Source: a virus (Duplodnaviria > Caudoviricetes). Taken from it: a stretch of DNA of 50,187 bases. Both the position numbers and the translations under genes were made by a program. This document shows positions 1,768 through 43,028 of the stretch, piece after piece; positions within the stretch are counted from its first letter, which is position 1; each line of letters opens with the position of its first letter. The DNA is taken from positions 1 to 50,187 of the IMG/VR virus record IMGVR_UViG_3300018422_000112; one strand, written 5' to 3'. The notes beneath the pieces are model-generated. The model had not been told where the DNA came from. It did no database searches and was given only the letters and a program-made list of their open reading frames with translations.

Positions 1768-1941
1768 TCACGCCGCCCTCCCATAGCTCTCCGGCCCCAG
1801 CGGAATAGCCGTTCCACAGAAGGCGCATTCGGCCGACAGCCGCCCGATCAGCCAACTGCTACGGCCACAGCCCGGACAAGAGCATCCAGGTTTGTGACGG
1901 ATGACGTAGCCTCTATGGTGGGGATCGTGGGGAAGGGTCAT
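1768..1941 (-). CDS. Small zinc-ribbon protein
   Basis: CPGC...CAFC motif; ATGA overlap with the queD-like stop. Confidence 0.6.
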   Translation of the reverse strand: MTLPHDPHHRGYVIRHKPGCSCPGCGRSSWLIGRLSAECAFCGTAIPLGPESYGRAA

Positions 1942-2243
1942 GGGTGGTCCTCCGATTTCCATCTGGCGTAGAAGCGCTCCAAGGGCCGCCTGACTTCGAC
2001 CTCAACGCAATTGGCGAGGCAGCCAACAGCGCGAGCAATATCCTCGCCCCAAGACATATCCTCTGGCAGAACTTTATGATCCCAGAGGCTGACGACGCTC
2101 TGGAGGGCCGCCTTGAAACAGCGCGCGTCGGCCCTGTTCACATTCCGAAACCAGGCGATAACCTCGTAGCTGTGCCCGTGCATCTCTCCCTCAGGAGACT
2201 TGTGCGAGGCGCTGAATACTGCCCCAACTCCGGTAAGGATCAT
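1938..2243 (-). CDS. queD: QueD-like 6-carboxy-tetrahydropterin synthase (T-fold), short variant
   Basis: FSASH...MHGHSY zinc-binding motif, WDH motif, E-x-IA motif. Confidence 0.8.
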   Translation of the reverse strand: MILTGVGAVFSASHKSPEGEMHGHSYEVIAWFRNVNRADARCFKAALQSVVSLWDHKVLPEDMSWGEDIARAVGCLANCVEVEVRRPLERFYARWKSEDHP

Positions 2244-2995
2244 GCCGACGCTCCAATCTGTCGGCATAGGCATTGCGACCGGACCAACGCTCTGGGGCTG
2301 GTAACTCGCCGAAGATGGAAAGCTGGCGTGGGGGCTGATCCTGCCAGTCGTAGCGGTGCCCGTTTTGCGCTAACGTGGTCGCGTCCGCTCCGATAACGGG
2401 ATATTTGTGAGCCTCTGCAGCCCCCCGCAGCAGATGTGTTGGATGCCAGCGGTTTCCATAGAATCGATCTATTTCGTCCATCTTCCGGCGAAAGGCATCG
2501 CATCCTACCGGCTCGCGCTTGGGATGGCCGATCCAGCCGAGACAAACACGGTCGAATCGTTCGCAGAGATGCCCTAGGCGCTCTATTCGGCCATTCATAT
2601 GATAGACAGGAGCGCCCTTGCTCCGGCCAAAAGGCCAGTCGTTCAGTAGGGCGTCGTTGAGTTGGGAAGGGGCGCTTGGGCTGTCCGGAGTCACGGCCCA
2701 ACGTCCCGGAAGGAATAGCCGCGGCTCTAGCCATGCATAATAGGCGCGCCACCATGCGTCTCGTCTTTCTTGGTCCCACTCTTGACCGGCCCGCATCGCC
2801 GACATCCAGAACGAATATCCGCCGTGGTCGAAACATTATGTCGGGGCATATGCCCTCGACTGCCTCCATATCGTCCGGGCGGTAGAAAGAGACGCAGGCA
2901 GCTCGCCCGAGCAACACGGCAAGCAGCGCAGCGCGCGGAGTCAGCGGAGTGCCGTGGTAAATCGTGGGCAGACTTAGGCCGTCCTCTCCCATCAT
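2191..2995 (-). CDS. TGT/DpdA-like deazaguanine transglycosylase-fold protein, split by a +1 frameshift at 2833-2828 (programmed shift or pseudogene)
   Basis: YHGTPLTP...CVSF in frame 0; DHGGYS, PVYHM, RVCLG, THLLRG, GADATT in the +1 frame, matching TGT-barrel motif order. Confidence 0.65.
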
Positions 2996-3687
2996 GACGG
3001 GCTCCCTTGGGGGATGAGGTCGAGGCGCTTGGCGAGGCCGTCGCGGTTGTTCCAGTACATTCCGGGCAGTGAGCCGCCTGGCCCAGTCACTTCGCCAAGG
3101 CCGCGCCTTTTGAGTGCTCGCGCCGCAGCATAAAGCTGACTGGTGGTCAGCTCGACGCCGCAACCTTCTTCGCCGGTGGCATCGTCAGGACAGCTTGCGA
3201 TCAGCATTCGGCGCATGGGGTTAGAAAGGCCCATAATTCCGGCCTCTTTCTTTTTCCTTCTGGCGCGCCGAGTAGATTCCAGCGCGCAGGCTCGGCACCG
3301 CTGCCTTCTCTTCCCATCCGGGAAGACGACCCGAAGAGTGTTTGCTTCATTGAAGGGGTGGCCGTTCTTACAATGGGTGGGCTCTCGATTGTTGAGCCGC
3401 CCCTTGGAGAGAGCGTCCTGGATGTTCTCCAGTTGCGTCCCCCACCACAGATGCGCGGGGTTCACGCAAGGCGGATTATCGCAGGAATGCAGAGCAAAAT
3501 GAGCCTCGGTGGGCCTGCTGCGCCCGTCCGTCTCCAGGGAGATGTGAGTGGCCCTGCGGAGGGTGCCTTTGTGGTGAAAGGCGCCGTAACCTTTCCCCTG
3601 TGTCTGGCCCCGCCAAGGCCAGCACTCGTCCGGCTCTTGCCTATCGATCTTGCTCCAGAAGAGAGCGGCGGTCTGCTCGTCAATCAT
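2992..3687 (-). CDS. HNH endonuclease with Zn-finger, fused to a C-terminal wHTH-like domain
   Basis: ECWPWRG, LHSCDNPPCVNPAHL...EN, THCKNGH...CRAC; GGAGG RBS before ATG 3687. Confidence 0.85.
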   Translation of the reverse strand: MIDEQTAALFWSKIDRQEPDECWPWRGQTQGKGYGAFHHKGTLRRATHISLETDGRSRPTEAHFALHSCDNPPCVNPAHLWWGTQLENIQDALSKGRLNNREPTHCKNGHPFNEANTLRVVFPDGKRRQRCRACALESTRRARRKKKEAGIMGLSNPMRRMLIASCPDDATGEEGCGVELTTSQLYAAARALKRRGLGEVTGPGGSLPGMYWNNRDGLAKRLDLIPQGSPS

Positions 3688-3735
3688 CCCGCACCTCCCC
3701 CGGCATGGATGGTGGCCGGGCGCTCTTGTCATCAC

Positions 3736-4929
3736 TCACGGCCATTTCCGGCACTCCTTGCATTGATCGCCGTCGTGCATGTTGCTGAATTCGGTTGCGG
3801 GTTTGGTCTCGCCACAGAGACAGCACAGCCTGGTGGGCGGCATGGATACTGGGTCAGCCAGACTCGCGAGGCTCGCCGCCTCTTGCAGCAGCGCCACATA
3901 GCGAGGCTCGATCCCGTCGTAACTGTCGGCGGAAATGCCATCGTGAGCTTGTACGAACAGCGCCAGCGCGCGGCGGTGCATGGATACTGGGTCAGGTGAG
4001 GGTGTAATATCAGCCAAGCCGCTCAGAACGATGCTATCGGACTGACCCTGAAGGTAGGCGCGCTGGATGGCGCGGAGGGCTATGTCTCTTCCTTCGGGCG
4101 CTGGGAGAAAATTCATCCTCCCGTCTCGCATGCACTGAGCGGTATTCGGCTGCCCAGCCGCCTCATATTCAGCCGCCAGCAACTCCCGCGCCCGCTGCTC
4201 GACATCTCCCGCCGGACTTATTTGCATATCGTGCAAACAAGTGGCTGCAGGCATGGTGGGCGATGGGGAAAGGGCGGCATCGATTTCCGCAAGAAGCGTG
4301 CGGCATGTCGGAGCGACAGTTTGGTTCTCGATCGCGGGCTCCATCTCGGCCAACGTGATAGGAATCTCGACGTAGCGCCGAGCTCTTTTGAGAAGCGCCC
4401 GCAGCCCCGCTTCCCCGGCACCTTCGGATGCGGGCCGGAAGTGAACGATCCCGGCTTCGCGACGGTGCTCGATAGCCTCCATCAGAGTAGCGAGCCGGAC
4501 GCCAGCGCGAATTTCCATCGCGGGCGGTAGCCTTACATCGCACGGGAGGACGGCACCTTCGGACGATCGAACCCGCAAGCTTTCGTTGCCGGTTGGGGTG
4601 GATTCGGATGGCTTGGGAAGGGCGGCGTCGTAGCGCGTGATAAAGGCTTCCGCAGCCTCGCAGGCGTCCAACAATTCATCGTCAAATCCGGCTCTCCCGC
4701 CGCTCGTATAACCCCTGTAAGTGAGCCGCCTCAGAAGCCTGACCGCCTCCCTCGCGTCCCCTCCGGATAGGGGAGGGCGGGTGTTCCAACGGCCGATAGG
4801 GTCGTCTTCGCCTGGCATTGTCGCCCAACAAGTGAGGCAGCTTATCGACTCGATGCGCCATTTGTAACCGGTGATTATGCTCGCCTTGCCACCGCAAAAC
4901 GGACAGGGTTTCAGCTTATCGTCGCTCAC
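3736..4929 (-). CDS. Lar-family restriction alleviation domain fused to a mosaic C-terminus
   Basis: LKPCPFCGG...CLTC...WNTR N-terminal signature; C-terminal CCLC...CKEC. Confidence 0.7.
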   Translation of the reverse strand: MSDDKLKPCPFCGGKASIITGYKWRIESISCLTCWATMPGEDDPIGRWNTRPPLSGGDAREAVRLLRRLTYRGYTSGGRAGFDDELLDACEAAEAFITRYDAALPKPSESTPTGNESLRVRSSEGAVLPCDVRLPPAMEIRAGVRLATLMEAIEHRREAGIVHFRPASEGAGEAGLRALLKRARRYVEIPITLAEMEPAIENQTVAPTCRTLLAEIDAALSPSPTMPAATCLHDMQISPAGDVEQRARELLAAEYEAAGQPNTAQCMRDGRMNFLPAPEGRDIALRAIQRAYLQGQSDSIVLSGLADITPSPDPVSMHRRALALFVQAHDGISADSYDGIEPRYVALLQEAASLASLADPVSMPPTRLCCLCGETKPATEFSNMHDGDQCKECRKWP

Positions 4930-15947: not shown

Positions 15948-16718
15948 ATGGGCCGCGTCGAGCAAATCGGACGCGCCATGCTCTATCTGGGCGACTGCGG
16001 CAAAATCCTTCCTACACTCGCCGACGGATCGAGCGAAATCGCCTTCACGTCGCCGCCCTACAATCTCGGCGAGGGGATGGAGCGCAAGGGCGGCCTCAGA
16101 GTCGGCCATGCCGGCAGCAAATGGGGCAGCGACAAGCTCCGGAAGGGGTACGGCGCGCACGATGACGCCATGCCGTATCCCGAATATGTCACTTGGCAGC
16201 GGCGGATCACAGCCGAGCTGTACCGCGTCGTCTCGGGCGCCATCTACTACAACCACAAGCCGCGGGTCGTTAAACGCACCCTCCGATCCCCGCTCGACTT
16301 GATCGACGCGCCGGTTAGGCAAGTCATTATCTGGGATCGCGGCTCCGGCTTCAATTGCATGGCCGGCGCCTACATGCCGGTATGCGAATGGATCGTACTT
16401 GCGGCCAAGCCCGACTGGTCCCTTCGCGACAAGTCCGCCAGCGCAGTGGGGGACCTCTGGCGCGTACCGGCCACAGCCGACCCAGACCACCCCGCCTCGT
16501 TCCCCGTGGCGCTTCCGACCCGCGCTCTCCAGACCAGCGGCGCGGCAAGCCTGATCGATCCCTTCATGGGTGTAGGAACCGCCGGCGTGGCCTCCGTGAG
16601 CATGAACCGCTCGTTTGTCGGGATCGAGCTGAACGAAGCCTATTTCGATATCGCCTGCCAGCGGATTGAGGACGCCCAGCGCCAGACGAGCCTCTTTGAA
16701 ACGGGGGTCGCGGCCTAA
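15948..16718 (+). CDS. Orphan DNA methyltransferase, beta class (m4C or m6A)
   Basis: FTSPPYN catalytic motif N-terminal to the DPFMGVGT SAM motif. Confidence 0.92.
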   Translation: MGRVEQIGRAMLYLGDCGKILPTLADGSSEIAFTSPPYNLGEGMERKGGLRVGHAGSKWGSDKLRKGYGAHDDAMPYPEYVTWQRRITAELYRVVSGAIYYNHKPRVVKRTLRSPLDLIDAPVRQVIIWDRGSGFNCMAGAYMPVCEWIVLAAKPDWSLRDKSASAVGDLWRVPATADPDHPASFPVALPTRALQTSGAASLIDPFMGVGTAGVASVSMNRSFVGIELNEAYFDIACQRIEDAQRQTSLFETGVAA

Positions 16719-34391: not shown

Positions 34392-36574
34392 TGGCAGTCG
34401 TCCCGATCACCCAAGGCGCTCGCATCAGGCGCGAGCCCATGCCTGCTTCCCGCGTCGTTGCTCCGGATATGTCCAGCGTCGGACGGTCCATCGGGGAAGG
34501 GCTGCAAGAGCTGGGGCAAGCCGGTTCCCGATTCGCCGAGGGCGAGCAGCGGCTTGTAGAGTTGCGGGCCGAGGAAGAGACGCGACGGGGCGATGTCGGC
34601 CTTATGCAAGCCGTCCGCCCACTCGACCAGCAGGTCCGGCGCGCGCGCGGCGTCAATGTCCGCGGCGCCTTAGCCTCTGCCCAAGAGGATTTGCGTACGA
34701 TTAGCGGGGAAATACTATCTAACGCCTCGAGCCCCTTGGCACGGCAGATGCTTCAGCGGGCCATAGACCGCCGAGTCGGACAGACCCTCGATAGCTGGTC
34801 ATCGCATGCCGACACAGAGGAGTTCCGCGCGCTCGACACCGGCCACGAAGCGAGGGCGAACGCCTCCATCGAGACCGCCCTCGATCACGCCGAAGAGCCG
34901 GAGATCGCGGCCGAGAACATGGCGAACGCCGTCATCGAAGTGAGCCGCCGCGCCGAGCTCAACGGTTGGGGCGACGCTGTACGGCAAGAGCAGCTACTCG
35001 CGACACGCTCCCGCTTTCACATCGGCCGCGCTCGTCAACGGTTCGAAGCAGAAGACCCTGAAGGCGCGAGGGCGATCCTTGATGCGAGCGGGGACGAAAT
35101 CCGGGCCGATGACGAAGCCCAGATGCGGCGCCTGATCAGCGGAGAGTTGGAAGCCAACCAAGCGTCACGAGACTTGGCCTATGTGGCCGAACTGCCGACT
35201 GCAGAGGGGGCAGCGCCCTCTAGTCCCGATGTCCCGCCAGGAGAAGCCGAATGGCGATCCCCGGTGCGCGTCGATTCGACGACCGTTCCCGGCGGGAGGT
35301 TCGGTGCGCCGCGCAGCTATGGCGGACATGTTGGCCGCGACTATGCCGGAATGAGGCAGGGAACGCCTGTCTATCCAATGGCAGAGGGCACAGTGCGAAG
35401 CGTTACCCGCTCCAACGGGGGCGGAAATACCGTCGAGATCGAATATGCCGGCGGCTACCGTTCGCGCTACCTGCATCTCGCCGATGGATCAATCCGGGTT
35501 CGCGAAGGGCAGCGTGTCGCGCCGAATGATGCTGTTGCTGGCGTGGGAGAGACCGGATCAGCTTCTCGCGGCGTTCACCTTCACGCCGAGCTTACCGATA
35601 GGCAGGGGCGCCGGATTGACCCTCAGACAATCGTAGGAGAGCGCTCTACGGGCTTGCCGGCGCCTGATGGCCGCCGCGTCGACATAGCGGTGCTCTATAG
35701 TCGCATTGATCAGCAGCCTTGGTCGGAATCTCGAAAGAGGCGCGCCAGGGAAGAGGCGCAGCGATACGCGGGCCAGAACGATCGGGTCCGCGAGCGCGGC
35801 GAGCAGGATGCCGAGCGTGTCCTTACTCAGCGGCTCGTCGAGATGAACCAGAGCGGGCAGCGCCTCACCAACCTGTCGCAACTGCCAGCCGCCGCACTAT
35901 CCGACGCCAGCCCGGCCTTTGTCCTTCAGCTTCAAGCCAGCGCCGACGCCAACAGCCGCCGCGAGCCTGAGGCAAATTCGGTAGTCATGGCCGAACTCGT
36001 CTTGCGGGCAGCGGAAGACCCGAACGCCTTCCTTCGTGAAAGCCCGGAACTCTATCGCAATCGCATCACCGATGCCGAGGTCATGGCCCTACACCGTACC
36101 CAAGCCGAGATTCGCAACCGCGCCGGGCCACAGCCGGGACAGATCCTCGAGATGATCAACTTCGTCTTGCCAGACACCGGGCTTGTCCCGCACATCGCGA
36201 CAACCTTGTCCGGTCCTCGCCGCCGAGTGGCGAGAGAAGCTGCGGAGACAGCCGAACGCCAGGCGCGGGCAAGGCTGCTCTCTGCGGTCCAGCAGCGTCT
36301 TTCGACCCAGTTCCCGCAAGGCACGCCAGTAAGGCAACAGGACATTCTCAGCGCCGTTCGCGCCGAAGTCGCGACCGTAACCGTTAACGGGCAGCAGACG
36401 CGCGTTTTCGAGGCGAGGGAGAGAGGCCAGCGCAGTTACACCATCCGAATCCCCCAACGGGTGCTGTCCCGCGTGGATCAGGATTTGCGCGACGCCGGCC
36501 TGCCGATCACCGAGAACAATCGCGGCAACGCCTATCTGAGGAACAAGGCCGAATACGATGCCATCTCCCGCTGA
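34391..36574 (+). CDS. Internal virion (ejection) protein with an M23 peptidase domain
   Basis: HVGRD (HxxxD), YLHL, GVHLHAE (HxH), IDP. Confidence 0.85.
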   Translation: MAVVPITQGARIRREPMPASRVVAPDMSSVGRSIGEGLQELGQAGSRFAEGEQRLVELRAEEETRRGDVGLMQAVRPLDQQVRRARGVNVRGALASAQEDLRTISGEILSNASSPLARQMLQRAIDRRVGQTLDSWSSHADTEEFRALDTGHEARANASIETALDHAEEPEIAAENMANAVIEVSRRAELNGWGDAVRQEQLLATRSRFHIGRARQRFEAEDPEGARAILDASGDEIRADDEAQMRRLISGELEANQASRDLAYVAELPTAEGAAPSSPDVPPGEAEWRSPVRVDSTTVPGGRFGAPRSYGGHVGRDYAGMRQGTPVYPMAEGTVRSVTRSNGGGNTVEIEYAGGYRSRYLHLADGSIRVREGQRVAPNDAVAGVGETGSASRGVHLHAELTDRQGRRIDPQTIVGERSTGLPAPDGRRVDIAVLYSRIDQQPWSESRKRRAREEAQRYAGQNDRVRERGEQDAERVLTQRLVEMNQSGQRLTNLSQLPAAALSDASPAFVLQLQASADANSRREPEANSVVMAELVLRAAEDPNAFLRESPELYRNRITDAEVMALHRTQAEIRNRAGPQPGQILEMINFVLPDTGLVPHIATTLSGPRRRVAREAAETAERQARARLLSAVQQRLSTQFPQGTPVRQQDILSAVRAEVATVTVNGQQTRVFEARERGQRSYTIRIPQRVLSRVDQDLRDAGLPITENNRGNAYLRNKAEYDAISR

Positions 36575-39500
36575 CGAGGGCAGAGCCCGGCGCGTATCAG
36601 GGCTTCGCCGGGAAGCGGCCGCGCGCGTGGCGCTGCACGCCGTCGATGACACCAGCCCGGCCACGGCGCGGGCCGATGCGAGGCTCGGGCGTCAGGCTGG
36701 CATACCTCTGCAGTCCTTCGATGATGCCACCCGGCCCATGGCGGAGGCGAGGGCGCGAAGCTTTCAGGTCCAGGACGCGCTTAGCCGCGCCCCGCGCCTT
36801 GCTCCGATCCTCGCCGATCCTCGCCGCTATCAGCGGGTTTCGGACGACTTGGCTCCGCTGACGGATATTGTCGACGCCGTTCATCGCCAGTCGAGGGACA
36901 TGGCGGCTACGTTCATGTCCGAGGCCAGTGGGAGGCGAGAGCCGCGGCGCATCGGAGGCGGCGGCATCAGTCCTGTCGGGCAAGCGATTTCAGCCCTGCT
37001 CAGCGGCACAGCGGCAGTAGGAGAGGCCCTTGTCGGCGGCGGTATCGAGATGGGCGGGAGCGCCCTGCAAGCCTCGGGCCGGCTTGCCGTGCAAACTGGC
37101 GTTACCGCGCTCGGCACAATCGGCGGCGCCCATGTCTTGGCGGGGTCTCCATCCATCCGTGATTTGACTGACGCGGCGGCTCGCCCGCTCTCTCGGGCCT
37201 CGCAGGAGGCGGCGCGGCCTATCGTTCGCTATGGCAACACCTTCGCCACGCCAACGGACAGCCCTCTCGTCAACCGCCTTCAAACAGCGGCTCGCTCCGC
37301 CGGTGGTTCAGCTATTCTGTTGCTCGCCTCCGCCGCCACTCGAAACCCTCTGACCGGAACTGTGATCGCGGGCGTGGCGGAATCCGAGCGCGCCTATGAA
37401 GATGCCATCGCCTCCGGGTTGAATGAGCAAGAGGCCCGAAGCTACGCGGACATCAACGGCCTGATCGAAGGCGGTATGGAGTATTGGAGCAACCGCCTGT
37501 TCGTCGGCGACATAGTGGGCGGCAGCGGCTTCCTGCGCACTCTCCGCAATCAGGTGGCGTCCGAGGTCCCGAGCGAGCTGGCGACCACGGCAGGGCAGGA
37601 GCTAAACCGGTTCGCCAGTATCGAAAGGCGGCAGGGCGTTACCGTGGGGGAGTTCGTCCGCGACCTCCCCGGCGAGTTGCTGGACACCTTCATTACAACC
37701 ATCCTCGCCACGGGCATGACGACTTCGATTTCTCATCCCATAGCGACGGTCGTTAACAGGCGTGTCGAGCAGATACAGGCGCGAACCGACGCGCGGACGG
37801 TCGATCGGATCATGGGGGCGTCCGCTCAGTCGCGAACGAGGACAGAGAGCCCGCATGATTTCCGCGAGATTATGGACGAAGCGGCGGACGGAACCCCCGT
37901 CGAGAATCTATACATCCCTCCGGAGAACATCCGCCAGCTTTTCCAGACCCCCGAAGATTTGGCGGAGGACAATTTCTGGAGCGCCTATGCGGAGGATATC
38001 GCCGAAGCGGAGGCCATCGGTGGGGACGTAGTCATTCCTCTGTCCGAAGCGGCGACGCATCTCGCCGGCAATCCTCAATGGGAGGCGCTGAAGGATCACG
38101 CGCGGACCTCCGCGGGGGGTATGTCGAGGATCGAAGCGGAGGAAGCGAACGAGGCATTCGCCGATGCGATCCGCCAGACCGGCGAGGAGCTGACCGCTGA
38201 GCTTGAAGCCGATCGTGCGGCCATGGAGCCTGTCGTCAAGGTCTATGAGGCGATGCGCGACAAGCTGATGCTTGCGGGGTTTCGCGCCGATGCGGCGTCT
38301 CAGCTCGCGACCCAATTTTCTCAGCGGCAAGCAGTGCGAGCCCAGCGCCTGGGACGTCCTCTGACCGGGCAGGAAGCGGGAGAAGTGGAGGTTCGGCAAA
38401 TCCTGCCCGAACGCTTGGCACAGGCCATCACGGCAGCGGAAGTTCCCGACGCGGGGCTGCGCGACGTCATCGCCGAGATGAGGCGCAAGCGCGGTGTCCG
38501 AAGCGAGCAGGCTAGGTTCGGCCCCTCACTGCTCGACTGGATAGCCAAACGGGGCGGCATTGAGGATCGCGGCGGCGACATTGCCGCGATGGGAGCGGGG
38601 CCTCTCAGAGGCAGCGCGAAGAAAGGCCAGCGGAAGCTCATCAGACCCAGCAACGACGGTCAGCCCTCCCTGCTCGGCGCCGATGGACAACAGAACAGCA
38701 ATTCGCCGGACGAGCTGGCGTTACGCGCATGGGAGGCTGGGTACTTCACCGAGTTCGCCGAGCGGCCGAGTGTCAATGATCTTCTGAATGCGATTTCGGA
38801 GGGCCTGTCGGGCCGCGACCGCTTTGTGCCGGCGGATGAAAACCAAGCCGATATGTTGAGGGATGCCGCCCAGGAACTATCTTCGCTTCTTGATCAGCGT
38901 GGCTTGGACGCAGACACGGCTAGCGATGCCGAGATCGCTCGAACGGTCTCGCAATATCAATCGGAGCGGATGGAGGGGAGGTCTTTCGGGCAGGGGCTTT
39001 TCGACGATCCCGAACAGCCGCGTCGGAGCATGACCACCGAGCAGCGCGCCGAACTTGATGCGCGCCAGCTGCAATCCATGGCGCGGCGTGGCGGTCAGGC
39101 ATCGGTGAAGGATCAGGCCGGCGGCCTCTTCTCTGCCGAGCGCGATCAGGACAGCCTGTTCCAGACCTATGGGGATGGCCCGAGAGGGCGCATCACCTTC
39201 ACGTCCGATGGGCGCTCAGTTATCGACCTCTTCGAAGCGCGCGACCTGAGCACGTTGATCCACGAATCTGGCCATCTCTATCTCGAGGAGCTAAAAACAG
39301 ACGCGGCAATCGCGCTCCAGCTCGACACCGTAGAAGGCCGGCAACTCTTCGCCGACTTCGAAACGGTCAAAGCATGGTTCGCGCGCGAGGGTCATCCGAT
39401 CGGCGAAGACGGCGTGATCCCAACCGAAGCGCACGAAATGTGGGCGCGGGGTTTCGAGCGTTACGCCATGGAGGGCAAAGCTCCGTCGTCGACTCTCCGC

Positions 39501-42500
39501 CGCGCCTTCGAAGCGTTCCGGTCCTGGCTATTGAATATCTACAAGACGGCGGACAGGCTCCGCGCGCCGATCACGCCTGAAATCCGCGATGTCATGGCCC
39601 GGCTGCTGGCGACGGACGAAGAGATCGCCGCGGCTCAGGAAGAGCAGCAGATCAAGGCGCTGTTCAAGACCGCCAAGGAAGCGGGGATGACGGCGGCCGA
39701 GTTCGCGGCTTACAATCGTTCGACGGAAGACGCGCGAGACGAAGCTCATTCAGCCCTTCTCCAGCGGACGATGGCGACGATTCGAGCCTCGCGCACGAAG
39801 GAATATCGGACCCAAGAGGCGAGCGTCAACGCCGAGATCGCGGCCGCGGTCGATAACCAGCCCGTGTTCAAAACTCTTCGTCTGCTGCGTACCGGAAAAG
39901 TCACTGATGAAGAGGCGCGGCCGGTCAAGCTGGACAGGCAATTCCTTATCGACTCCTACGGGCCAGACGCTCTTGACGCGATGCCGAAGAGCGTCCCGCC
40001 CATATTCGGAAGCGAGAACACCACCCACCCCGACGTGATCGCGGGTGAGGTCGGCTTCGAATCCGGCGACGAGATGATCCGAATGCTGATGGGGCATGAG
40101 CAGACCCGGCAGGAGCTGAGGGCGAAGGGCGACAAGCGCTCCCCACGGCAAGTGCTGATCGACGAGGAAACGGCCGCGCGCATGGCCGAGCGCTACGGGG
40201 ATCCATTGCGGGACGGCTCGATCGAGGAGGAGGCCCGCGCTCTCATCCACAATGACCGGCAGGGCGAAGTCATCGCGGCCGAGATCAGGGCGCTGGGCAG
40301 GAAGACGGGGCAGCGGCCGACACCATATTCAATTGCTCGCCAGTGGGCCGCCGAGCGGATCGCCACTGGCGTGGTTGTGGGCGTTGCCTCGGGAACGGCA
40401 CTCCAGCAATACCAGCGCGCCGCGCGGAGGGCAGCTAAGCTCGCCGAAGAGGCGATGCTGAAGGGCGATGCAAACGAGACGTTCCGCCAGAAGCAGTCCC
40501 AGATGCTCAACAACGCCCTTATCTCGGAAGGGAGGAAGGCGAAGGACCGGATCGACATAGCCGTCCGCCGGCTCGGCAAGCTGGCCAAGCGGCGGACGAT
40601 GAAATCCGTAGATCAGGACTATCTCGACCAGGTCCACGGGCTGCTGGAGCAAGTTGACCTGGGGCAGCGGTCGCAGACGGCGATCGACAAGCGCATCTCG
40701 TTCGAAACGTGGGCTGCGGCGCAGGAGGCCGCCGGCCATGACCTGACCGTCCCCGCGTCTTTCGCGAATACCTTGGGACAGACGCATTGGTCGCGCCTCA
40801 GCGTCGAAGAGCTGATCGGGCTCGACGACACGGTCCAGCAAATCATCCACCTAGGAAGGTTGAAGCAGACCCTTCTCGACGGCAAGGAGCGGCGGGATCG
40901 GGAAGAGGTCATCGCCGAGATGGAGGCGGTCGGCGGGGGCCTGAAGCAGCGTCCGCCTTCGACCTTGAACGATCCGGATCGTAATTTCCTAGACAAGACA
41001 AGATCCAAGCTGCGCGGCGCCGACGCGGCGATGGTCAAGATCGAGCAGCTTTGCCTGTGGCTGGACGGGAACCGGCAGAACGGCCCGTTCACCCGTATGA
41101 TCTTCCGCCCGATGGCCGAAGCCCAGGGTAGGGAAGCCGACATGATGCGGCTCTACGTCGAGAAGATGAACGTCGTTCTCAGTGGGATGCCGAAGGAGCA
41201 GCTTCGCGATTGGGGGCGAGAGGTCGACACGCCGGAGCTGATTGTCAACGTCGAAGGCCATCCGGAGCGCGGGCGGCCGTGGCGGCTCTACAAAGACCAA
41301 ATCGTCATGCTGGCGATGAACTGGGGCAACGAGGGCAACCGCCAGCGCATCGTTGACGGCTACCGCTGGTCGGAGGCTCAGGTGGAAATCGTACTGGCCA
41401 GACTGATGTCGGCGGAGGACTGGGCTTTCGTCCAGGCTACCTGGGACACGATCGACGAGCTTTGGCCGCAAGTCGCCGAGATGGAGCGAAGGGTCAACGG
41501 CTTCGCTCCGGACAAGGTCGAGGCGATCCCAGTCGAGACGCCGTTCGGCACGTTCCGAGGCGGCTATTTCCCGGCTGTCTACGATCCGACCTGGTCGTCC
41601 CGCGCCGAGGCCAATGCGGAAAAGAACCTCCTCGAGGCCAATTACGTGAAAGCCAACACCCGCGCCAGTTCGACCCAAGAGCGCATCGAAGGCGTGAAGC
41701 GGCCGATCCTGCTGTCCATGGGCGTTATTACCCGTCATCTCGGCGAGGTTATTCACGACATCACGCACCGGGAAGCGCTCATCGAGGTTAACCGCATCGT
41801 CTCGGATGAGCGGATCCAGAGAGTCATCTCGAACACGATGGGGCCGGAGTACGGCAAGCTCCTGACGCCTTGGCTGAAGCACATCGCCAACGATGCGGCG
41901 CGGAACGCCAACTCGAATTCGATTGTCGTCAATTTTTTCCGCGGGCTCAATCGCAACGTCACGCTCGTGGGGCTCGGCTATCGGCTCACTTCCGCCATCG
42001 CCCAGGTCGCGGGTATGCCGAACATCATTGCCAAGATCGGCGCGGTGCGGATGGGCGAGGGGTGGCTGCGGTTCATGTCCAACCCGCTCTCCGCCTATCG
42101 CGAGGTCACGGACAAGTCGGCGGAAATGCGCGACCGCTTCTCAACGATGGACCGCGATATTGTCGAGCGCGCCCAGCAGATGGCTGGACGGCGGGGGATC
42201 AGGGCGATCCAGGGACCCGGCTGGTTCACGAAATACGCCTTCCACTTCATCCTCATTATGGACGCGTTCCTGACGACGGCGGGGTGGATTGGGGCCTATC
42301 GCAAGGCGGCGGCTGAGGGGATGAGCGAAGAGGAGGCCGTTGCGTTCGCCGACCAGACAATCCGGCTGTCCCAGGGCGCGGGCGGGGCCAAGGACCAAGC
42401 GGCGATCACCCGCGAGCATGAAGCGGTGAAAGTCTTCACCCGCTTCTTCTCCTATTTCTCGGCGCTCTACAGCCAGCAGCGGGACGTGTTTCATCGCCTG

Positions 42501-43028
42501 CGGAGGATCGAGAGCGCGAAGGACGCTGGGACCGTCCTTCACCGCGCATTTTGGGTAATGATCATGCCGCCGATCGTCGATGGGCTCATTCGCGAGTGGA
42601 TGGGCGGGTCCGGGCCTGGCGACGATGACGAGGACGGCGAGATATCGCTGGAGGAGCGTGGCGAATGGCTGGCAAGCCGCGTTATGTTTGGCAACATCGC
42701 CTCGATCCCCGGCATCCGGGAGGTTGGCGGCGCTGTCGATTCAGGCTTCGGCTACCGCATTTCCCCCGTGTCCATGGTCGGTGAAAGCCTTCTCCAGGGA
42801 TTTCAGAATGTCGAGCGGATGCTGGATCGCGACGAAGGGACTGAGCCGAGCGACCGCTGGGTCAAGCAGACGCTCACGCTCTACGGCCTCCTGTTCGGCA
42901 AGCCCACGGGCCAGCTCTCAGCGGCGGCTCAGTTCAGTTACGACACCGCCACCGGGGAAGCCGAGCCGGAGACCGTCGGCGACTATTACACTGGTCTGAC
43001 GAGGGGGCGGCTGGAGGAAGTCGAATAA
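36558..43028 (+). CDS. Large internal virion (ejection) protein, 2156 aa
   Basis: Size and position; STLIHESGH...HEMWARGFERY module. Confidence 0.85.
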   Translation: MPSPADEGRARRVSGLRREAAARVALHAVDDTSPATARADARLGRQAGIPLQSFDDATRPMAEARARSFQVQDALSRAPRLAPILADPRRYQRVSDDLAPLTDIVDAVHRQSRDMAATFMSEASGRREPRRIGGGGISPVGQAISALLSGTAAVGEALVGGGIEMGGSALQASGRLAVQTGVTALGTIGGAHVLAGSPSIRDLTDAAARPLSRASQEAARPIVRYGNTFATPTDSPLVNRLQTAARSAGGSAILLLASAATRNPLTGTVIAGVAESERAYEDAIASGLNEQEARSYADINGLIEGGMEYWSNRLFVGDIVGGSGFLRTLRNQVASEVPSELATTAGQELNRFASIERRQGVTVGEFVRDLPGELLDTFITTILATGMTTSISHPIATVVNRRVEQIQARTDARTVDRIMGASAQSRTRTESPHDFREIMDEAADGTPVENLYIPPENIRQLFQTPEDLAEDNFWSAYAEDIAEAEAIGGDVVIPLSEAATHLAGNPQWEALKDHARTSAGGMSRIEAEEANEAFADAIRQTGEELTAELEADRAAMEPVVKVYEAMRDKLMLAGFRADAASQLATQFSQRQAVRAQRLGRPLTGQEAGEVEVRQILPERLAQAITAAEVPDAGLRDVIAEMRRKRGVRSEQARFGPSLLDWIAKRGGIEDRGGDIAAMGAGPLRGSAKKGQRKLIRPSNDGQPSLLGADGQQNSNSPDELALRAWEAGYFTEFAERPSVNDLLNAISEGLSGRDRFVPADENQADMLRDAAQELSSLLDQRGLDADTASDAEIARTVSQYQSERMEGRSFGQGLFDDPEQPRRSMTTEQRAELDARQLQSMARRGGQASVKDQAGGLFSAERDQDSLFQTYGDGPRGRITFTSDGRSVIDLFEARDLSTLIHESGHLYLEELKTDAAIALQLDTVEGRQLFADFETVKAWFAREGHPIGEDGVIPTEAHEMWARGFERYAMEGKAPSSTLRRAFEAFRSWLLNIYKTADRLRAPITPEIRDVMARLLATDEEIAAAQEEQQIKALFKTAKEAGMTAAEFAAYNRSTEDARDEAHSALLQRTMATIRASRTKEYRTQEASVNAEIAAAVDNQPVFKTLRLLRTGKVTDEEARPVKLDRQFLIDSYGPDALDAMPKSVPPIFGSENTTHPDVIAGEVGFESGDEMIRMLMGHEQTRQELRAKGDKRSPRQVLIDEETAARMAERYGDPLRDGSIEEEARALIHNDRQGEVIAAEIRALGRKTGQRPTPYSIARQWAAERIATGVVVGVASGTALQQYQRAARRAAKLAEEAMLKGDANETFRQKQSQMLNNALISEGRKAKDRIDIAVRRLGKLAKRRTMKSVDQDYLDQVHGLLEQVDLGQRSQTAIDKRISFETWAAAQEAAGHDLTVPASFANTLGQTHWSRLSVEELIGLDDTVQQIIHLGRLKQTLLDGKERRDREEVIAEMEAVGGGLKQRPPSTLNDPDRNFLDKTRSKLRGADAAMVKIEQLCLWLDGNRQNGPFTRMIFRPMAEAQGREADMMRLYVEKMNVVLSGMPKEQLRDWGREVDTPELIVNVEGHPERGRPWRLYKDQIVMLAMNWGNEGNRQRIVDGYRWSEAQVEIVLARLMSAEDWAFVQATWDTIDELWPQVAEMERRVNGFAPDKVEAIPVETPFGTFRGGYFPAVYDPTWSSRAEANAEKNLLEANYVKANTRASSTQERIEGVKRPILLSMGVITRHLGEVIHDITHREALIEVNRIVSDERIQRVISNTMGPEYGKLLTPWLKHIANDAARNANSNSIVVNFFRGLNRNVTLVGLGYRLTSAIAQVAGMPNIIAKIGAVRMGEGWLRFMSNPLSAYREVTDKSAEMRDRFSTMDRDIVERAQQMAGRRGIRAIQGPGWFTKYAFHFILIMDAFLTTAGWIGAYRKAAAEGMSEEEAVAFADQTIRLSQGAGGAKDQAAITREHEAVKVFTRFFSYFSALYSQQRDVFHRLRRIESAKDAGTVLHRAFWVMIMPPIVDGLIREWMGGSGPGDDDEDGEISLEERGEWLASRVMFGNIASIPGIREVGGAVDSGFGYRISPVSMVGESLLQGFQNVERMLDRDEGTEPSDRWVKQTLTLYGLLFGKPTGQLSAAAQFSYDTATGEAEPETVGDYYTGLTRGRLEEVE

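Follow-up and report, generated by a model that had tools for sequence, protein, structure and literature searches.

We analysed a DNA stretch of 50,187 nt, positions 1 to 50,187 of the IMG/VR record IMGVR_UViG_3300018422_000112 (referred to here as the window), which derives from a member of the Caudoviricetes and is a complete provirus record by CheckV estimate. Its minus strand carries a gene for a putative DpdA/TGT-like enzyme whose reading frame is broken by one base directly before an invariant Asp codon. The gene is flanked by an open reading frame (ORF) for an HNH endonuclease on the 5' side and by a QueD/PTPS-like ORF on the 3' side, and stop and start codons overlap at both boundaries. 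For the coordinates of these features see Table 1.

Table 1. Features of the DpdA/TGT-like locus in the window.
Feature	Position	Strand	Length	Basis or remark
Putative DpdA/TGT-like gene, frame 0 and +1 frame	2995->2191	minus	267 residues when read through the break	
5' segment, frame 0, from ATG 2995-2993 to Phe TTT 2833-2831	2831..2995	minus	55 codons	Translation; alignment to the N-termini of in-frame homologues
Shift site ATG TTT CGA C	2827..2836	minus		Window sequence; P-site UUU, next +1 codon GAC (Asp)
+1-frame TAA directly before TGT TTC GAC	2836..2838	minus		5' bound of the region in which the frame can change
3' segment, +1 frame, from GAC 2829-2827 to stop 2193-2191	2191..2829	minus	212 codons	D-x-G-x-F and the rest of the barrel
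Frame-0 continuation, stop-free	2240..2830	minus	197 codons from TTT	Terminated by TGA 2242-2240; ATGA overlap with the ATG of the next gene
GGAGG resembling a Shine-Dalgarno sequence, candidate 5' stimulator	2863..2867	minus		30 nt 5' of the first U of UUU
QueD/PTPS-like ORF	1938..2243	minus	101 aa from ATG 2243	Start overlaps the frame-0 stop; ATG 2273 also open
HNH endonuclease ORF, upstream	2992..3735	minus		phrog_826, E 9.2e-32; its stop TGA 2994-2992 overlaps the DpdA-like ATG 2995 (ATGA)

The codons at the break are ATG (2836-2834), TTT (2833-2831), CGA (2830-2828) and CCA (2827-2825). Frame 0 reads P-D-I-M-F and continues with R-P-R-R. The +1 frame reads TGT TTC GAC CAC GGC GGA TAT (C-F-D-H-G-G-Y), followed by S-F-W and the remainder of the protein. 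Since the +1-frame TAA abuts TGT TTC GAC, the change of frame is confined to ATG TTT C. A +1 slip at this position gives M-F-D and a product of the same length as in-frame relatives, while a -2 slip would add one residue. The original prediction, made from the letters of this stretch, had placed both frames, the motif and the stop codons at these positions on the minus strand, and all of its coordinates are correct. The contig of a second assembler, from the probable source run (a soil metagenome), is identical over positions 2400-3200 at a depth of 9.7, being a non-independent sample. For database searches we used a read-through protein (P0001), which was built with ATAA read as I and differs from the slip product in one junction residue.

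A protein search yielded 367 relatives at E ≤ 0.001, and 19 of them were aligned. Three of these 19 depart from the family frame after D-Y-P-F. In ten, the annotated start is an internal Met after F-W, as in the downstream ORF of the window. On the DNA level we assembled 73 loci, comprising the window, 17 genome loci and 55 IMG/VR loci; three lack the N-terminus because of contig ends, which left 70 to be classed. The genome loci stem from Sphingomonas, Sphingobium, Sphingopyxis, Rhizorhapis, Caulobacter and an Aquabacterium metagenome-assembled genome (MAG).

The reading frame is broken in 42 of the 70 loci, at four different positions. At site A, which includes the window, the break lies at ATG TTT C GAY (28 loci). 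At site B it lies at CC(G/C) TTT C after D-Y-P (11 loci), at site C at CCC TTT T GTC (one locus) and at site D at CCC TTT C TAT (two loci, which are two records of one Rhizorhapis prophage). The remaining 28 loci are in frame, with ATG TAC/TTC GAC and mostly ATG TAC GAC at the position of site A; they read M-(F/Y)-D and have the same length as the joined product. Four break positions require at least four separate one-base insertions. Sites A and B both sit just upstream of an invariant Asp. The 28 site-A loci are 28 distinct DNAs, in which ATG-TTT-C-GA is invariant (28/28) while flanking codons and synonymous positions vary. A check of homologues for the same frame break and motif, which had been proposed along with the original prediction, thus finds both in 27 other loci of distinct DNA, which come from isolates, MAGs and viromes. 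This is far more than chance would give.

Some individual loci deserve mention. In L071 (positions 380-760, IMG/VR) the frame ends with Y-P-stop at the site-B position, and the matching sequence picks up again some 350 nt further on, in a different frame; a GC-rich inverted repeat between the two matching parts suggests a small insertion there. Four site-A loci (L049, L061, L063 and L066) carry CCN TTT C in frame at the site-B position with no change of frame, so the motif alone is tolerated within a coding frame. Public gene calls of shifted loci start the C part at the internal Met (P0087 and P0115, two NCBI records annotated as hypothetical proteins), or give the frame-0 product at site B (P0005, P0013 and P0063). 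The database entries therefore misrepresent the DpdA-like protein of the shifted loci.

To classify the selection on the two parts of the gene, we compared the ratio of nonsynonymous to synonymous substitution rates (dN/dS) among the 28 site-A loci. The dN/dS is 0.135 for the N part in frame 0 and 0.155 for the C part in the +1 frame, the latter taken over its first 150 codons. The same C-part DNA read in frame 0 has a dN/dS of 1.79. The median dS in this group is 1.4-1.7; it amounts to 1.66 for the +1-frame C part, i.e. synonymous sites are saturated. The +1 frame 5' of site A is closed in 27 loci and open in one. The +1 frame conserves the stretch D-(H/N)-G-A-F-S-F-W, which no start codon precedes and which often has a stop codon just 5' of it. 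The Ser of A-F-S-F-W alternates between AGC and TCN codons.

A pseudogene, a simple indel or a sequencing or assembly error in the window has to be considered, because errors and mutations most often take the form of one extra base in a T run. The original prediction had named an indel or a sequencing error as its alternative. We regard the probability of this explanation as close to negligible: the very same break is found in 27 further distinct loci with dS above 1 and a dN/dS of about 0.14 on both halves, the sequence of the second assembler is identical, and the purging of frame-0 stops described below needs long-term selection. A split enzyme, in which an N fragment and a C fragment initiated internally at the Met after F-W assemble with no frameshift, would agree with the public annotation of the C part from that Met (10/19 aligned homologues, including the two NCBI records). 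It is extremely unlikely, given that D-x-G-A-F-S-F-W, which is invariant and conserved in the +1 frame with codon switches, is encoded 3' of the shift site but 5' of the Met, that several A loci have K or Q in place of the Met, and that the purging of frame-0 stops would be left unexplained. Pseudogene, error and split enzyme are thus rejected because both halves are under selection, the +1 frame is closed on the 5' side and the motif precedes any start codon.

The unshifted frame provides further information on the break. In the A loci its median open length after site A is 160 codons (84-210), compared with 22.5 codons for the same frame in in-frame relatives. Frame-0 stops need a T at the third codon position before a codon beginning with AA, AG or GA, and we compared the frequency of T at such positions with that elsewhere. 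In the A loci, T occupies 7 of 888 stop-creating positions after site A (0.8%), compared with 639 of 3312 positions elsewhere (19.3%). The corresponding region of the in-frame relatives has T at 140 of 836 stop-creating positions and at 546 of 3364 others. The B loci show T at 68/343 stop-creating and 265/1142 other positions upstream of site B, and at 4/128 and 71/312, respectively, after site B. For the single representatives of the remaining sites the counts after the site are 0/29 and 18/120 (L018, site D) and 0/30 and 25/119 (L064, site C). Neither the A loci nor the in-frame loci avoid stops in the region after site B. Avoidance is limited to the DNA 3' of the shift site of each lineage, and the purge therefore tracks the position of the shift site. 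Since synonymous sites are saturated, stop avoidance must be actively maintained. The claim that the shift sets the dose of the enzyme fits these observations, as frame-0 stops are purged solely 3' of the shift site and solely in shifted lineages.

An open frame 0 of 84-210 codons, strongly kept, would also be expected if the frame-0 protein (55 N-terminal residues and a tail of about 197 residues) were itself functional and the shift set the ratio of two products, and gene callers do predict frame-0 products at site B (P0005, P0013, P0063). Such dual-product recoding would be compatible with a dosing role of the shift. We consider it unlikely, as the frame-0 dN/dS of 1.79 and the saturated synonymous sites of the +1 frame (dS 1.66) reveal no added constraint. 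Moreover, the number of native residues ahead of the tail differs by site (55, ~51, ~71 and ~190), and stop avoidance is common to all of them. The amino acid sequence of the frame-0 tail is not conserved. The selected feature is uninterrupted translation of frame 0, rather than the peptide that results from it.

In nearly all A and B loci, frame 0 ends at or near a start codon. Among the 28 A loci the two codons overlap as ATGA in 22, as TTGA in three and as GTGA and CTGA in one each, and an ORF of at least 50 codons follows the frame-0 stop in 25. All 11 B loci have a start within -4 to +5 nt of the frame-0 stop. In in-frame relatives it is the enzyme's own stop that overlaps a start, in 21 of 24 distinct contexts (17 ATGA, 3 GTGA and 1 TGATG). 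The +1-frame stop of the enzyme lies 16-226 nt beyond the frame-0 stop in most A loci, the exceptions being L012 (17 nt before it) and the truncated L074 (760 nt after it); an ORF starts at this +1-frame stop in three of 28. The frame-0 stop is the TGA within TAT-GAC of a conserved H-R-Y-D in 19 A loci.

In the window and at least 11 further loci, the gene that follows is QueD/PTPS-like; other loci have members of three different families at this place. Because this gene varies between loci, the stop/start relation was not inherited together with one neighbour. The QueD-like ORF of the window matches PF01242 with E 2.6e-4 and 21.4 bits, below the cutoff of 22.4 bits, and TIGR03367 with E 0.0037. 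Among seven QueD-like downstream ORFs, six match PF01242 at E ≤ 0.0073, and one lies above the cutoff. A possible M-P-T-D start of the QueD-like ORF (2243-2273, minus strand) lies within the conserved A-Y-A-D-R motif of the DpdA-like protein, in another frame. Several possible starts exist in this interval and in related loci, so the QueD-like start is placed only tentatively. The proposal that unshifted ribosomes still couple the next gene fits both the stop purging and the frame-0 stop/start overlap in A and B loci.

At all four sites the Phe codon UUU is followed by a pyrimidine: TTT C at site A (28/28), site B (11/11) and site D, and TTT T at site C. Together with the conserved break and the purifying selection on both halves, this agrees with the programmed +1 shift that had been predicted, in which tRNA-Phe re-pairs from UUU to UUC. 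Slippage of RNA polymerase on the three T residues, yielding a minority of in-frame transcripts with no ribosomal shift, would equally explain the conserved T run and the open frame 0. In general, productive transcriptional slippage needs homopolymer runs much longer than three or four T. The need for a pyrimidine after UUU, which is T at site C and C at the other three sites, fits re-pairing of the anticodon, and the same UUUC acts at the ribosome in FseA (PMC4755241). Correction at the RNA level is thus very unlikely. An explanation by a suppressor tRNA was dropped, as ARAGORN finds zero tRNA genes in the window.

The original prediction had also invoked the motif UUU-CGN. Here UUU_CGA is indeed invariant at site A, where CGA is forced because the extra C precedes the Asp codon. 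The rare CGA is not a general element: at site B, six of ten distinct loci have CGC as the A-site codon, and the other four have CGT, CAT, CAC and CCA, respectively. Since this codon is often the common CGC, a hungry codon is not a general requirement. A further, speculative suggestion was feedback from queuosine status, as the first +1 codons of the window are read by Q-modified tRNAs. This did not hold. The Asp, His and Asn codons at site A are there because of the catalytic motif itself; elsewhere the first +1 codons are GCC, GTC, ATC, ACC, CAA, GTC and TAT, only the last of which (site D) is Q-decoded. Queuosine sensing as a general feature is therefore rejected.

We observed a conserved element upstream of the shift sites. 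GGAGG is present at -34 to -30 from the first U in all 28 site-A loci, in one of them in a different codon phase, and in two of 23 in-frame relatives. In the window it ends 29 nt before UUU, and the elements at all sites lie 17-30 nt upstream of the shift codon. At site B, CGA/CGG/AGG followed by GGN creates a purine run at -30 to -24 in nine of ten distinct loci; at the same position, CGC is used by 22 of 24 in-frame relatives and by 19 of 27 A loci. GGAGG occurs at -25 to -21 at site C and at -22 to -18 at site D. The median energies of a duplex with the anti-Shine-Dalgarno (anti-SD) sequence at site A are -9.9 kcal/mol for the A group, -3.7 kcal/mol for the B group and -6.2 kcal/mol for in-frame relatives. 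At site B they are -4.1, -9.4 and -6.1 kcal/mol in the same order. The SD-like enrichment is therefore reciprocal and site-specific between the A and B groups. A conserved RNA structure was not found with RNAalifold in the 28 site-A loci from -50 to +75; weak pairing between the GGAGG region and GUUUC (-4.3 kcal/mol) had zero covarying pairs.

Based on these comparisons we propose the following mechanism. The break is very probably a low-efficiency programmed +1 ribosomal frameshift that doses the enzyme, while unshifted ribosomes keep the coupling to the next gene. Peptidyl-tRNA-Phe on the UUU at 2833-2831 would slip by +1 to UUC (UUU at site C). The ribosome would then read GAC, the codon of the invariant Asp, and the remaining +1 frame to produce the full enzyme of 267 residues, for which this would be the sole route. 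This slip would probably be rare and inefficient, since TTT-C often stands in frame elsewhere in the window and is also present unshifted at the site-B position of some A loci. Such inefficiency fits the need for an open frame 0. Most ribosomes would continue in frame 0 through a stop-free but otherwise unconstrained tail and terminate at the TGA that overlaps the next ATG. The enzyme would thereby be throttled, and the chain of translational coupling would remain intact with no untranslated mRNA exposed. The upstream GGAGG-like element may stimulate the slip.

A more specific version of this proposal describes a recurrent attenuator that is transparent to coupling. Here, a UUU_Y +1 shift would have been inserted at least four times into one coupled early enzyme gene of phages, each time with a purge of frame 0 and with the stop re-phased onto the next start. 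A few percent of ribosomes would make the enzyme, and the slip would be tuned by a GGAGG located roughly one ribosome length 5' of it, perhaps through the trailing ribosome. We offer this version tentatively, at somewhat less than an even chance; the action of GGAGG through a trailing ribosome is speculation.

Several points weigh against the proposed mechanism. The case is built on the comparison of DNA sequences. The TTT-C tetranucleotide by itself is a weak signal that may act with very low efficiency: of 51 in-frame TTT codons in the 33 other ORFs examined in the window, 25 are followed by C. The SD-like spacing of 17-29 nt is unusual and varies between sites, and the anti-SD probe was a consensus rather than the 16S sequence of the host. 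TAT-GAC inevitably contains ATGA, which may make some of the stop/start overlaps of the A group incidental. The Fisher tests for stop avoidance treat loci and codons as independent and ignore relatedness. A quick tree, built without L018, L068, L064 and the three loci truncated at the N-terminus, had an unresolved backbone; a single origin of site A is possible, so that its 28 loci represent fewer independent lineages, and several are near-copies. With regard to the enzyme, its function is assigned from a PHROG label, tied fold matches and neighbouring genes. The Pfam TGT model gave no match at E ≤ 1 to any of 55 family members, and none to proteins of phages SfI and Pam5.

To classify the enzyme we searched with the read-through protein, which matches phrog_887, annotated as queuine tRNA-ribosyltransferase, over residues 12-211 (E 3.5e-21) and continuously across the break. 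Homologues in isolated phages, at up to 37% identity, all match as one piece and in frame; they are annotated as transglycosylase, queuine tRNA-ribosyltransferase or hypothetical protein. The family profile aligns with gp34 of phage SfI at an hhalign probability of 99.85% (E 1.4e-30), including the motifs D-N-G-A-F and S-A-D-S-T. No Pfam or NCBIfam match was found for either half or for P0001. A sequence profile search of the PDB gave nothing but a chance chitinase match (E 0.86), and Foldseek gave no match to the PDB at E ≤ 0.001. The AlphaFold2 model of the in-frame homologue P0002 is a TIM barrel with a predicted local distance difference test (pLDDT) score of 88.9. Structural comparison with VIA-align resulted in Z-scores of 12.2 for arcTGT (PDB-entry 1iq8, 214 aligned residues), 12.1 for TGT (3unt, 215 residues), 11.8 for Cap10 (9ntn) and 11.2 for DpdA (7ui4, 209 residues). 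Generic TIM barrels tie with these structures (Z 12.4-13.3), the TGT-type alignments being among the longest.

Residues D48 and F52 (D-x-G-x-F), D96, D106 and D196 are invariant in 55 homologues. In Salmonella DpdA the active site contains Asp95, Asp130 and Asp256 together with the base-stacking Phe99, with Asp95 as general acid/base and Asp256 as nucleophile (PMC10164549). By the Asp95...Phe99 spacing, and not by alignment, we infer that the Asp of D-x-G-x-F may be the equivalent of Asp95. The label of a catalytic Asp directly after the break is plausible by this spacing; if equivalent to Asp95, the residue would be a general acid/base and not the nucleophile. With respect to the 7-deazaguanine pathway, a QueD/PTPS-like ORF, mostly below the Pfam cutoff, adjoins the gene and a VUT-family gene lies near the Pam5 homologue. 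No queC, queE or folE gene was found among the 32 scanned ORFs of the window. The protein is thus DpdA/TGT-like, presumably a DNA guanine/7-deazaguanine transglycosylase, and would be nearest to the singleton DpdA proteins of temperate phages.

Two isolated phages show related arrangements. In Enterobacteria phage SfI (L075:1492-2467), gp34, which is annotated as queuine tRNA-ribosyltransferase, overlaps the gene annotated next to it (gp33) by 131 nt, and a gene for a DksA-like zinc-finger protein follows, near xis/int. This layout resembles that of the window, where the DpdA-like gene, an overlapping small ORF and a zinc-ribbon ORF (1768-1962) lie beside an integrase. Pseudanabaena phage Pam5 (L076:1480-2959) carries the closest isolated-phage homologue (37% identity), with the VUT-family gene two genes downstream. 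The VUT family presumably comprises queuosine-precursor transporters, which would fit a 7-deazaguanine role near this homologue.

Other genes of the window encode an integrase, Lar-like and Erf proteins, a DNA methyltransferase, RusA, terminase, portal, protease, capsid and tail proteins. The Lar-like restriction-alleviation match of the 397-aa ORF at 3736-4929 (minus strand) is limited to the N-terminus. The DNA methyltransferase (15948-16718, plus strand) matches phrog_67 with E 1.2e-42, and an ORF of 2156 aa (36558-43028, plus strand) matches phrog_9880, a family of unknown function. A crude GC3-based scan of the window for other TTT-Y shifts returned one antisense artefact, missed the known site and was uninformative.

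To our knowledge, conserved obligatory +1 frameshifts in bacteria and phages are few: prfB, FseA, YopN-TyeA and a handful of phage cases. The YopN-TyeA shift joins two otherwise separate functional proteins at a low level; unlike this, the shift described here would be obligatory for any active enzyme. The prfB shift depends on a stop codon that stands in frame in the A site, and on an SD sequence located about 3 nt 5' of the shift codon. Like prfB (release factor 2, CUU_UGA_C), the present case would be a bacterial +1 slip in the P site with an SD-like element upstream. Unlike prfB, it has the sense codon CGA in the A site, a frame 0 that is open for 197 codons and a GGAGG that is 17-29 nt away.

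UUU_Ynn is prone to +1 shifting in bacteria (PMC5009743). As in Yersinia YopN-TyeA, tRNA-Phe would slip by +1 on UUU and a pyrimidine, with an A site that holds no stop codon (PMC5009743). The nearest parallel is FseA (msi172-msi171) of a Mesorhizobium symbiosis integrative and conjugative element, which uses a +1 shift at UUUC that occurs in 4-13% of translation events (PMC4755241) and for which a role in damping harmful or noisy expression has been proposed (PMC4755241; PMC5009743). Both systems belong to alphaproteobacterial mobile elements and share the slippery UUUC, a conserved G-rich region upstream, and the coexistence of single-ORF and two-ORF variants in the family; tRNA-Phe moves from UUU to UUC in FseA and would do so here. 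Unlike FseA, which is a transcription activator, the product here is a presumed enzyme, and the shift occurs at the 55th of 267 codons, immediately ahead of an invariant Asp. Unlike in FseA, the unshifted frame is open for about 160-200 codons with its stop on the next start, and there are at least four separate shift positions. The UUU_CGA of site A also resembles the sites of influenza A PA-X (UCC_UUU_CGU; PMC3498833) and plant amalgaviruses (UUU_CGN; PMC5052127). These use eukaryotic ribosomes, however, and in the present family a slow CGN codon is not generally required.

The enzyme itself resembles the singleton DpdA proteins, i.e. dpdA without a full preQ0 pathway, in being a short TGT-like protein of temperate phages encoded near int/xis. 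Hutinet et al. (2019, PMC6884629) stated that the function of the singleton DpdA groups needs more study. SfI gp34 is 31% identical (tblastn) and is absent from the main text of that paper. Unlike SfI and the other isolated-phage homologues, which are all in frame, the gene of the window is shifted. A published description of this DpdA-like frameshift was not found in a search that lay outside the supplements of the DpdA papers, which could list these prophages. The type of mechanism is known. Not found in print by this search were its occurrence in a phage DpdA-like gene, the presence of four independent sites and the purged, re-phased frame 0.

These results add a large family to the known cases, with 42 of 70 sampled loci shifted and a public annotation of truncated hypothetical proteins that start at an internal Met. 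For annotation, the two halves should be joined with a ribosomal-slippage feature rather than be listed as fragments or pseudogenes. The four positions within one gene are natural replicates and provide material for studying UUU_Y shifting and the effect of GGAGG at 17-30 nt. The stop-purged unshifted frame with its re-phased stop and start would be an evolutionary read-out of ribosomes in both frames. If this is true, the purging of off-frame stops would be a general sequence signature of low-efficiency recoding sites. The arrangement suggests a way to lower the amount of one protein within a coupled operon without polarity, and it offers material for asking why an enzyme that would rewrite DNA bases is kept at a low dose in a temperate phage.

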